Assembly: GCA_964426185.1 (NCBI GenBank)
Contig: CAYRPF010000016.1
Coordinates: 1 to 32,000, forward strand
Direction of reading: 5' to 3'
Length of the DNA stretch: 32,000 nt
Source of the DNA: an uncultured archaeon
GTDB lineage: Archaea > Asgardarchaeota > Lokiarchaeia > Sigyniarchaeales > Promethearchaeaceae
Notes under the pieces: model-generated
Told to the model about the DNA's origin: nothing
The model's input: the letters and a program-made list of their open reading frames with translations, nothing else
Databases searched by the model: none
Program-made: the position numbers and the translations under genes
Part shown: one piece after another, positions 14,317 to 17,514 of the stretch
Position numbering within the stretch: the stretch's first letter is position 1
Layout: each line of letters opens with the position of its first letter

Positions 14317-15183
14317 CTATTTACGCTTCACGGTGGTGAATTTTACTTTTTTTTCTAAATCACGAAATATCCCAACTACTTGTTTATCATTAAAATCGGG
14401 TTCTAATGTTATAAATTTTTGATAATAGGCAAAGGCAGTCGGATACTCTTGTAAATTATAGCAGATCAAAGCTAGATTTTTCAAAGCAACGGGATTATTT
14501 TCATCCAAGCTTAATACCCGCTCCGCTATTTCTTTAGCTTCTTTAAAATTTCCCGTTCCAAATTCTAAAGCGGTAATTCGATTTAAAATTAATTTATTGT
14601 GAGGTTTTGTCCTTAAGGTTTGGCGGAGATGATAAATTGCCTTTTTATACTGCTGACTGAATTCATAGGCTAAGGAAATTGAGTAATGCGCCTCGGAATA
14701 TTCTTCATCCAATTCAAGTGCGCGCTTCAAACTATCAATAGCTTGGGTGTATTCATCAAGCTCAATATATGCATTTCCTAAATTATTCCACACCCGGGGA
14801 TCTTCTTCTTTTATTTGCAAAGCTAGTTTATAGCATTCAATCGCTTCATGATAGAGCACTTTTCCTTTTTTTTTCGCTAAAACTTGCATGGTCGAACCCA
14901 TATTTAAATACAACCCGTACATGATGCGGTCATATTCCACACCTTGAATTTGATGGGGAATCTCCCTAATTTTACGGTAATAGTTCAAACCTGTATCCAA
15001 ATCTCCCAACTGCACGTAGGTTAAACCGAGATGATAATACTTGAGAACTTCGAAATCCTTAGATTTTATATGATAAAAAAATGGAAGTGCTGCTTGATAT
15101 TCACCTTTACTGTATAATGACAGGCCCTTTTCAAAAATTTCTTTCTCCGATTTGCCTTCATATTCCTTTGGTAATGAGTTCAT
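14317..15183 (-). CDS. tetratricopeptide repeat protein
   Basis: Multiple TPRs (e.g. VWNNLGNAYIELDEYTQAIDSLKRALELDE); ATG at 15183 preferred over TTG at 15234. Confidence 0.85.
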   Translation of the reverse strand: MNSLPKEYEGKSEKEIFEKGLSLYSKGEYQAALPFFYHIKSKDFEVLKYYHLGLTYVQLGDLDTGLNYYRKIREIPHQIQGVEYDRIMYGLYLNMGSTMQVLAKKKGKVLYHEAIECYKLALQIKEEDPRVWNNLGNAYIELDEYTQAIDSLKRALELDEEYSEAHYSISLAYEFSQQYKKAIYHLRQTLRTKPHNKLILNRITALEFGTGNFKEAKEIAERVLSLDENNPVALKNLALICYNLQEYPTAFAYYQKFITLEPDFNDKQVVGIFRDLEKKVKFTTVKRK

Positions 15184-15254
15184 GTTGGTATTTCCTTTTA
15201 GATTTTCTACTCTTTTTTTAGAATTTTCATTCAAAACCTTTCAAATGGCGTTGC

Positions 15255-15296
15255 GTCCATACATCCCTTCAAATTTGATTTTTGGATGTATATCAT
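15255..15296 (-). promoter_or_regulatory. eukaryote-like SECIS element (3' UTR)
   Basis: Minus strand reads AUGA-U-AUACAUCC-AAAAA-UCAAAUUUGA-AG-GGAUGUAU-G-GA-C: UGAN/NGAN core, perfect 8-bp helix, unpaired A-run and apical mini-stem, just downstream of an ORF with in-frame UGA. Confidence 0.8.
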
Positions 15297-15319
15297 TCTA
15301 TGGGTTTTAGTGTTAAATT

Positions 15320-15655
15320 TCATTTTTTTTTACCACGCTTATTCGGAGGGGGAATTAAGAACAAATTCTGAAACGATGCCCAGCCACTTACCACCAACTT
15401 AGACTCATCCCACCATGACTCTAATGATTGCGCCATCAAAATGGGAACGGGAATTTCTGAATGTTTCTTTTCTCTTAAATCTGGTATGAATTGTTCGTGT
15501 ATAGTGGAGCGCGAAACTAAATTGGTTATGGCCACCTTAGTTTCTCCGCATCAGCCCTTATAGATACGTGGTATAATCAATATAACTGGATCATTTAGTT
15601 TGTGCATCCGCACCTTTTTTTTGATGAAATCCGATACTTCTGGTGATATTTCCAT
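15320..15655 (-). CDS. selenoprotein, 111 aa, G-U-C-G motif (HesB-like / CC-Se motif type)
   Basis: ATG at 15655 reads MEISPEVSDFIKKKVRMHKLNDPVILIIPRIYKG, then TGA (15553-15551), then CGETKV, continuing in frame into the track ORF 15320..15535; SECIS-like hairpin downstream. Confidence 0.8.
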
Positions 15656-15859: not shown

Positions 15860-16285
15860 ATGGTAGACGATATGGAATTAGAACTTATCCGAAGAAAAAA
15901 AATAGAAGAGATGATGAAAATGAGTCAAAAAACCATCCCAAATGAAGTAATCAATATTGAATCAGTCGATCATTTCAATAAATTGGTAAATGATTACCAA
16001 GATAGCTTGATCATAGTAGATAATTGGGCAGAATGGTGTGGACCATGTAGAGCTTTTGCCCCAACCTATGATGCCCTTCAAAAAGAGTATCATGATAAAG
16101 ACGTGATATTTGCAAAGCTGAATGTTGATCACCATCAAGACATAGCTGCGCAATTCCAAGTGACGGGCATTCCGACAACTTTATTTATTCATAATAAGAA
16201 ATTAGTGCATCGACAGGTAGGAATGGCACCAAAGCCGCAATTTGCGCAGATCATTGATGCAGTTTTGAAGAAAATTAAGCAATAA
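15860..16285 (+). CDS. trxA: thioredoxin with archaeal N-terminal helical extension
   Basis: WAEWCGPC, AKLNVD and GIPT; ATG at 15860 with GGTGA ribosome-binding site. Confidence 0.92.
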   Translation: MVDDMELELIRRKKIEEMMKMSQKTIPNEVINIESVDHFNKLVNDYQDSLIIVDNWAEWCGPCRAFAPTYDALQKEYHDKDVIFAKLNVDHHQDIAAQFQVTGIPTTLFIHNKKLVHRQVGMAPKPQFAQIIDAVLKKIKQ

Positions 16286-16450: not shown

Positions 16451-16879
16451 ATGGTTACCTTAGAAATCAAGATGAACGATAACCACGCCATGCACGAATT
16501 TGAGCAAATCCTACGTTCCGTATTCCACTTGACAAAAAAAGATGTCGAATGTTTCATGAAACTGCGTAAATTCGGGTCCGATGGAACATGTGTACAGAAT
16601 CTTACTAATCAAACCAATACCGATCGGAGCGTAGAACAAAAGAAACTTAACAAATTACGTGAACTTGGCTTGGTGACTCGTGTTCAGCTTACTTTGAGTC
16701 AATTTCAAGATCGATGTTCTCAAAATCAGCGGGAAGAATTAGCGCCTAGCACGAAAAAAGGGTATCTCTACGTTTACAGAACAATACCTGATTCGGAATT
16801 GTATGAAAAAATACAAAATACCACCACTGATTGGCTGAAAATTCTGAGAGACATATTTCTTTTAAGCGTTCAAGAGTAA
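16451..16879 (+). CDS. winged-HTH transcriptional regulator (TrmB-like N-terminal domain)
   Basis: FHLTKKDVECFMKL...DRSVEQKKLNKLRELGLVTR...KGYLYVY pattern. Confidence 0.7.
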   Translation: MVTLEIKMNDNHAMHEFEQILRSVFHLTKKDVECFMKLRKFGSDGTCVQNLTNQTNTDRSVEQKKLNKLRELGLVTRVQLTLSQFQDRCSQNQREELAPSTKKGYLYVYRTIPDSELYEKIQNTTTDWLKILRDIFLLSVQE

Positions 16880-16983
16880 CTAAAAAATTTGAGTCTCCAT
16901 AACCCAAATCATTTTAAGGTAAATGATCACAATATAAAGTATAGAGTTTTTGCACTAGTTAATAAAAAGGGATCGAATACACC

Positions 16984-17514
16984 ATGGTTGACTTCGTTTT
17001 AAAAATTGTACTATTAGGAGAAGGAGGGGTTGGAAAAACTTCTCTCGTTTACCGCTATATCGAAAATCGTTTCAGTCAAGATTTCAAATCTACGCTCGGA
17101 GTAAACCTCTTGAAAAAAAAAGTTGCCTTGGAAGATGAATTTGCTGGAAAATCCGCATCAATTCAACTATGGGACTTAGGAGGACAAAGTGCGTATCGAA
17201 AACTCCGAAAATTGTATTTAGAAGGTTCTCAAGGTGCACTGGTGGTATTCGACGTTACTTCACGTGAAAGCTTCGAGGCGCTTGAGGATTGGATTGAATC
17301 TTTGATAGAGATTCGTGGCAAGGAGGTTCCCATGATTATAATTGGAAATAAGATAGATTTGGAACCAGATCGCGTTATTAGCGATGAAGAAGCGCGTGAA
17401 TATGCGAAAAAATATAATACTGATGTGCTTTTTACTTCAGCTGCGACTGGTGAGAAAGTTGAAGATTCGTTTAAAGATTTAATTATGACAATTGTTCGAA
17501 AAATTTCGACCTAA
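16984..17514 (+). CDS. Rab-like small GTPase (Ras superfamily)
   Basis: G1 GEGGVGKT, G2 STLGV, G3 WDLGGQ, G4 NKID, G5 SAA; no C-terminal Cys prenylation motif. Confidence 0.92.
   Translation: MVDFVLKIVLLGEGGVGKTSLVYRYIENRFSQDFKSTLGVNLLKKKVALEDEFAGKSASIQLWDLGGQSAYRKLRKLYLEGSQGALVVFDVTSRESFEALEDWIESLIEIRGKEVPMIIIGNKIDLEPDRVISDEEAREYAKKYNTDVLFTSAATGEKVEDSFKDLIMTIVRKIST

Follow-up and report, generated by a model that had tools for sequence, protein, structure and literature searches.

Evidence for an unannotated lokiarchaeial selenoprotein gene and its probable place in the CC/Se-motif family NF041239

Introduction

Selenoproteins of Asgard archaea were surveyed in 2024 in more than 400 genomes, on the basis of homology to known selenoproteins, and seven families were described: SelD, FrhA, HdrA, FrhD, Prx-like, AhpF-N, and DsbA-like (PMC11227280). 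A review published in 2026 gives eleven archaeal selenoprotein families (PMC13188914). The Asgard type I eSECIS-like element has an AUGA_GA core and unpaired adenines that open its apical loop (Huang 2024, PMC11227280), and the Asgard eSECIS-like elements are credited to Mariotti 2016, a source represented here by its citation in PMC13188914. Two described selenoprotein families are close to the protein reported below. NF041239 (NCBIfam, Moor_selen_rel) was first predicted in Moorella thermoacetica. The 2026 review, which was the only paper found in a full-text literature search for NF041239, lists this family in its table as Moorella-type, with the motif CxxU and without an archaeal mark (PMC13188914). 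The other is the HesB-like selenoprotein TIGR01911 of Methanococcales and anaerobic bacteria, whose euryarchaeal member is a 75Se-labelled archaeal precedent of unknown function (PMC11097638).

The gene described here is located in the window, by which we mean the whole stretch of 32,000 nucleotides that was analysed (positions 1 to 32,000 of contig CAYRPF010000016.1, assembly GCA_964426185.1, from an uncultured archaeon of the Promethearchaeaceae). An earlier note on this DNA had proposed a hidden selenoprotein gene at this position, outside the set first described for Loki. We find that it is a real selenoprotein gene that is unannotated as such, and that it represents a new archaeal branch of a known but functionally uncharacterised family. 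The family is absent from the archaeal lists of both the 2024 survey (PMC11227280) and the 2026 review (PMC13188914).

Results

The selenoprotein coding sequence comprises 111 codons on the minus strand (15323..15655). It starts with an ATG at 15655, is bounded upstream by an in-frame TAA 7 codons 5' of this ATG, and ends at a TGA stop codon (15322-15320). One in-frame TGA is present inside the frame, at codon 35 (15551..15553, minus strand), and we read it as selenocysteine in the local sequence I-Y-K-G-U-C-G-E-T-K. The TGA is followed by TGC (Cys36), with Gly codons on either side of the pair. Sec35 and Cys36 are the sole selenol or thiol residues of the protein, as there is no second Cys. 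Translation reproduced all coordinates of the frame proposed in the earlier note, and also the placement of the TGA beside a Cys in a Gly-flanked G-U-C-G context. The same note had taken the 71-aa ORF of the ORF list for part of a longer frame, and this is correct: its GTG at 15535 falls after the TGA, and the ORF is the portion of the selenoprotein frame 3' of that codon.

Gene callers and NCBI annotate the post-TGA portion alone, as a hypothetical protein. This would fit the alternative that the internal TGA is a true stop, in which case the product would be the 71-aa ORF or nothing, and the frame before the TGA would be noise or the remains of a pseudogene. A stretch of 34 codons free of TAA and TAG is also not rare, with an estimated chance probability of about 15% at 34% GC. 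The open upstream stretch is thus weak evidence when taken alone, and the case therefore rests on comparative evidence. The upstream frame is far above chance because the TGA column and the sequence on its two sides are conserved in 35 loci and because a conserved SECIS element follows the stop codon.

A profile search covering 400 genomes of the phylum gave matches in 24 genomes, 17 of which have a TGA at the Sec35 column. Across the 35 loci of these 17 Lokiarchaeial genomes, the TGA occupies one identical alignment column, and the protein, which could be aligned over its full length with 33 relatives, is conserved on both sides of it. Among the genomes with a TGA are 12 of the 13 members of the window's own GTDB family. 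Homologues were expected to have TGA or Cys at position 35, with conservation spanning both sides, and this is what was found; the possible objection that conservation might be limited to one side of the TGA fails on the alignment of the family. That the 34 N-terminal residues are conserved over 35 loci with the TGA fixed at one column argues strongly against a true stop. Most of the 35 loci encode the dyad as G-U-C-G, one clade has G-U-U-G, and three distant members have U-S-G. Cys forms exist as well, and these too are difficult to reconcile with a stop: the metagenomic protein P0004 has G-C-C-G (the codons behind P0004, P0005, and P0006 being deduced from P0014 and near-identical loci), L058 and L062 have D-C-F-G, and a C-C form is present within the window's own genome. 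The deep branches of the family tree are poorly resolved. Five distant relatives without a TGA, all from GTDB family f3 (L036, L037, L039, L041, and L042), carry a CxxC motif, P-G-C-P-K-C, in the place of the U-C dyad.

A DNA pattern for F-E-R-x-Y-R-G-U-C-G gave 9 Asgard loci and 2 bacterial matches. It puts names to some of the hosts, which are Promethearchaeum syntrophicum MK-D1, Candidatus Lokiarchaeum ossiferum B35, and Promethearchaeum/Promethearchaeota MAGs. The 2 bacterial matches are without a homologous frame and were rejected as chance.

As a second alternative, readthrough of the UGA might insert Trp or Cys in place of Sec, either through near-cognate decoding or because the genetic code is a different one. 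The gene calls in ENA seem to speak for it, as they give W at this position. However, the ENA-derived protein P0014 proves to be a translation of the window gene in which W stands for every TGA, and its W reading continues past the gene's own stop into junk. It follows that the W of the ENA homologues is a TGA translated under another code. ENA protein P0005 is nearly identical to the TGA-bearing locus L020 (G140). As P0014 and P0005 both trace back to TGA, the 'Trp' homologues were rejected as Trp codons, and the objection that homologues might have Trp or another non-Cys residue at this position loses its basis. The aligned residue in relatives is Cys and not Trp, which also argues against this kind of readthrough. 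The practice of writing TGA as Trp affects four ENA-derived proteins (P0014, P0005, P0006, and P0008), which appear as false 'Trp' homologues of selenoproteins with tails that run past the real TGA stops.

The TGA is also not a sequencing error. Contigs from 3 of 4 metagenome runs (X1, X4, and X5, from separate studies, one of which may have supplied the sample behind this genome) show 0 differences at 15551-15553, and P0014, as an independent ENA protein, agrees on the TGA. The concern that the reads might hold another codon at this position therefore failed.

A eukaryote-like SECIS element of Asgard type I was identified in the 3' UTR (15242..15310, minus strand) by motif scan, by a held-out covariance model, and in the minimum free energy (MFE) fold. 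The SECIS start lies 26 nt past the stop codon. Its core consists of AUGA (15296-15293) and GA (15257-15256). The upper helix of 9 bp, in which 15292-15284 pairs with 15266-15258, is present in the MFE fold and closes an apical loop of 17 nt (15283-15267), the first bases of which are AAAAA. The element thus shares with the published Asgard type I elements the AUGA_GA core, the leading adenines of the loop, the upper helix, and the 3' UTR position (PMC11227280). It differs in that it serves a family outside the seven described, and its lower stem lacks clear conservation: a conserved lower stem was not found across the SECIS elements of the family, whereas the MFE fold of the window element pairs AAAACC with GGUUUU outside the upper helix (z -1.55).

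In a strict scan, a like architecture was found 4-50 nt 3' of the stop codon in 26 of the 35 relatives. Tolerance of one mismatch, or a search with the covariance model, adds a SECIS element in five further relatives, and in the remaining 4 of 35 none was recognisable by motif scan and covariance model. An alignment of 26 elements showed that AUGA and AAA are invariant and that compensatory changes occur at all 8 of the 8 helix pairs. Such conservation with covariation is not expected behind a decayed frame, and a SECIS element after the gene also argues against readthrough as Trp or Cys. The covariance model (R1) was built from 26 SECIS elements of other genomes. As it holds no element of the window's genome, a scan of that genome is a held-out test. 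The top three matches in the whole 3.26-Mb genome were all located behind family members, namely, the paralogue on contig C43 (36.4 bits), the window gene (35.7 bits), and the paralogue on contig C86 (28.4 bits). The window SECIS, second best genome-wide, has an E value of 1e-3 in that search and of 2e-5 among the loci examined. Weaker R1 matches on contigs C47, C8, and C5 and at 16909-16969 of the window were rejected as chance, as they have no upstream TGA-containing frame or no GA and helix. A scan of both loci with Rfam (E <= 10) found no SECIS family and gave two chance matches only.

The predicted SECIS hairpin would direct tRNA-Sec and SelB to decode the UGA at 15553-15551 as Sec. The frame ends in a second UGA, which probably stays a stop codon, as it would be too near the SECIS core (26 nt; 4 nt in some orthologues). 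In eukaryotes, recoding follows a rule of minimal spacing between UGA and SECIS. By analogy, the terminal UGA probably falls inside the minimal distance for recoding. The same arrangement, with a terminal TGA 4-26 nt before the SECIS core and the Sec-UGA about 250 nt upstream, is seen at L043, L046, L047, and in the window (15320-15322).

The machinery for Sec insertion, which the earlier note had listed as a check, is present in the window's genome (G000; 3.26 Mb in 155 contigs). ARAGORN found a tRNA-Sec (C3:27670-27760), and homology searches found SelB (248 bits, over the cut-off), SepSecS (439 bits), SelD (202 bits), and a PSTK-like gene whose score of 100 bits is under the curated cut-off. 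SelD has an in-frame TGA of its own and is thus Sec-containing. Its gene is followed by a 3' UTR SECIS element of the GUGA type with a UAAAC loop (L003:216-279, minus strand, contig C26), which scores 16.9 bits under R1. With regard to the genetic code, TGA closes 290 of 1585 long ORFs (18%) in this genome, and TGA is therefore not reassigned. Moreover, the only tRNA with a UCA anticodon found by ARAGORN is the tRNA-Sec. Both results argue against decoding as Trp or Cys, which we regard as very improbable. Taken together with the comparative data, they leave us highly confident that positions 15655-15320 of the minus strand are a single gene for a selenoprotein of 111 residues whose UGA is decoded as Sec; this confidence covers identity and decoding, not function.

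An AlphaFold2 model, for which the family alignment was the input, has a pLDDT of 92.5 and a pTM of 0.84. In this model, the N- and C-terminal parts around Sec35 form one domain, and residues 35-36 form a predicted turn between strands 23-34 and 37-48. That both parts fold together again argues against a true stop at codon 35, an explanation to which we give hardly any credence. The earlier note had suggested a comparison with the HesB fold, and this proved fruitful, with IscA and SufA as top matches. The ten best PDB matches are all of the IscA, SufA, DsrR, or HesB type (Foldseek probability, 1.0; TM, 0.60-0.69). The VIA Z scores are 8.9, 8.5, 8.2, and 8.1 at the top, falling to 5.0 over these ten, and the first unrelated fold is at 2.8. 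Based on this modelling, the window protein is predicted to have the IscA/HesB fold. When the family was aligned by hhalign with canonical Asgard IscA (E 1e-4), Sec35 was paired with the Cys in GGC(A/S)G, and Cys36 with the Ala or Ser next to it. In the model, the Sec35-Cys36 pair is thus placed at the tip of a beta-hairpin, at the site of the first cluster-ligand Cys of A-type carriers. Neither the family profile nor L040 retrieved IscA from the PDB by sequence, and the link runs by fold comparison and hhalign only.

The fold is common to this protein and the A-type carriers IscA, SufA, and HesB (PF01521; PDB 1x0g, 1s98, and 2d2a), with Z scores of 8.1-8.9 over 88-99 aligned residues. In contrast, about 7-12% of the residues are identical, no Pfam family, PF01521 included, matches the window protein at E <= 1, and the neighbouring gene encodes a thioredoxin and not isc or suf proteins. 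Of the three ligand Cys of these carriers, the first position alone is kept, as Sec35; the C-terminal Cys-x-Cys has no counterpart in the family alignment (A3). PF01521 is matched by 7 of 34 family members (best E, 9.7e-6).

The family link is to NF041239, whose profile finds 30 of the 34 members at E <= 0.1 (best E, 8.8e-12), and the matches cover profile positions 4-88 of 91. Most members are under the curated cut-off of 40 bits: the relatives score 19-40.2 bits, and L033 alone reaches it. For the window protein itself the score is 13 bits (E 0.079), from its N-terminal part only. As this is far from the cut-off, the link to NF041239 runs through the relatives (alignments A1 and A3, and the orthologue L049, with 19.1 bits across residues 2-98). 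The dyad of this family is U-C in the window gene and U-C, U-U, U-S, or C-C at the same column in relatives. These sequence comparisons place the window protein, through its relatives, in the CC/Se-motif family NF041239 as a diverged archaeal branch. The first reading of the N terminus as that of a HesB/IscA-like 'CC/Se motif' protein thus holds for the family, through the 30 of 34 NF041239 matches, the predicted IscA fold, and the position of Sec35 on the ligand Cys of IscA, with the window protein alone at 13 bits. The archaeal proteins resemble NF041239 in being single domains of about 100 aa with full-length HMM matches, in the Cys/Sec dyad after a conserved hairpin, and in having both Sec and Cys forms. 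They differ in that the two residues of the dyad are adjacent, with Sec first (U-C, U-U, or U-S); the motif given for NF041239 is CxxU with one Sec (PMC13188914). They also have a eukaryote-like SECIS element in the 3' UTR and not a bacterial in-frame SECIS, and there are five copies in the window's genome. The HesB-like selenoprotein TIGR01911 is likewise small and IscA-related, but its motif is UxGP, compared to U-C-G(-E) here, its SECIS is of the euryarchaeal and not the eukaryote-like type, and 0 of 34 family members match it at E <= 0.1.

The five family members of the window's genome show several versions of the dyad. The C86 paralogue (L002:1066-1365, minus strand) is 23% identical to the window protein. 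It has one internal TGA, gives V-Y-R-G-U-C-G-T-E when read through, and shares with the window protein a C-terminal G-W-A-x-F-x-x-L motif. The C43 paralogue (L057:1001-1321, plus strand) has two adjacent TGA codons (K-G-U-U-G), followed by the SECIS element that is the genome's best (L057:1336-1398); its neighbours recur in G135 and G137. On contig C15, a C-C paralogue (M-R-S-C-C-S; L069:1459-1779, minus strand) is immediately followed by a U-U paralogue (T-S-Q-U-U-G; L069:1118-1459, minus strand). This pair has a SECIS match at L069:1055-1116 (24.4 bits) and a DGC-like Cys-rich ORF upstream.

The gene neighbourhood is also conserved. Divergent from the selenoprotein gene lies a gene for a thioredoxin of 141 aa with a WCGPC active site (15860..16285, plus strand; PF00085, 89.7 bits). 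Its orthologues adjoin family members in 11 genomes from two GTDB families and in two gene orders. It is followed on its 3' side by a gene for a 142-aa protein of unknown function (16451..16879, plus strand), which has no Pfam match and is found at the same position in 6 other loci. Directly downstream of the SECIS element and on the same strand as the selenoprotein gene is a gene for a TPR-repeat protein (14320..15183, minus strand; Pfam TPR families), with orthologues downstream in 8 loci. The whole cassette of thioredoxin gene, 142-aa ORF, and TPR gene around the selenoprotein gene is repeated in 7-8 genomes. Further along the window, at 16984-17514 (plus strand), there is a gene for a Ras-family small GTPase (PF00071, 163 bits), a typical eukaryote-like signature protein of Asgard archaea. 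C86-type paralogues have other partners, adjoining a PP-loop ATPase with an SGGxDS motif in 8 loci and ferritin in 3 loci. The C86 paralogue itself adjoins such an ATPase, an arrangement kept in 8 genomes, and has a ferritin gene close by.

Discussion

Because the thioredoxin gene is a conserved neighbour, a thioredoxin-coupled redox role of the Sec-Cys pair suggests itself. The pair would cycle between the selenol/thiol and the selenenylsulfide form, the divergently encoded WCGPC thioredoxin would keep it reduced, and the reduced pair would deliver electrons, or else a bound form of S, Se, or a metal, to a target. We put forward such a redox centre at Sec35-Cys36 tentatively, giving it slightly less than an even chance; its basis is gene neighbourhood and analogy. 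It is supported by the adjacency of thioredoxin genes in the 11 genomes and by the presence of two thioredoxin-reductase-like genes in the window's genome. The paralogues beside PP-loop ATPase and ferritin genes count against it, as they would equally fit a role in sulfur or iron metabolism.

The analogy is with animal thioredoxin reductase, a flavoenzyme that carries a Gly-Cys-Sec-Gly redox centre on a flexible C-terminal tail. Both systems have a vicinal, Gly-flanked pair of Cys and Sec and a link to thioredoxin, but no homology is implied. The order is reversed here (G-U-C-G), and the pair would be located in a hairpin of a small IscA-fold protein and not on a flexible tail.

Alternatively, the Sec-Cys pair may be a ligand site, at which a dimer would bind iron as such or in an Fe-S cluster, or else a metalloid or soft metal, or it may deliver persulfide or perselenide. 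A-type carriers and sulfur relay proteins, which deliver bound species, provide a precedent. This agrees with the predicted IscA fold, in which Sec takes the place of an IscA ligand, with the paralogue clade next to PP-loop ATPase genes in 8 loci and ferritin genes in 3, and with the scarcity of canonical PF01521 carriers: of the 121 genomes sampled in the phylum, such carriers were found in only 4, and none was found in the window's genome. On the other hand, the C-terminal Cys-x-Cys ligands are absent, the window protein has no thiol other than Cys36, and the conserved neighbour in the clade of the window gene is a thioredoxin gene and no Fe-S assembly gene. We therefore consider a ligand or carrier role possible but rather unlikely.

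If we look beyond this gene to the thioredoxin-coupled redox role in the family as a whole, it is conceivable, although doubtful, that Lokiarchaeia, which are mostly without canonical A-type carriers, turned the IscA scaffold into thioredoxin-coupled selenium modules for redox or transfer reactions (U-C, U-U, and U-S), or that selenium acts there as a ligand in the handling of Fe-S clusters or metalloids. If this is true, the vicinal Sec-Cys hairpin would correspond to the Gly-Cys-Sec-Gly centre but stand on its own, or would provide a selenium ligand, and in either case this would be selenium chemistry that is undescribed for archaea. The pairing with thioredoxin and the Sec at the ligand position of IscA provide a concrete biochemical hypothesis for a family of unknown function.

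The public annotation of this family consists of truncated 'hypothetical' fragments or false Trp forms. Surveys that work by homology to known selenoproteins miss a multi-copy family of the NF041239 type, and the Asgard and archaeal counts are therefore underestimates. Genes with a terminal TGA 4-26 nt from the SECIS element offer a natural test of how distance decides between stop and Sec. As the family is present in the two cultured Asgard archaea, P. syntrophicum MK-D1 (with orthologues near 1,666,325 and 3,777,938 of NZ_CP042905.2, for example) and L. ossiferum, Sec insertion by means of a eukaryote-like SECIS element becomes testable on a small and abundant target. The Asgard selenoproteome is larger than the current lists of seven Asgard and eleven archaeal families.
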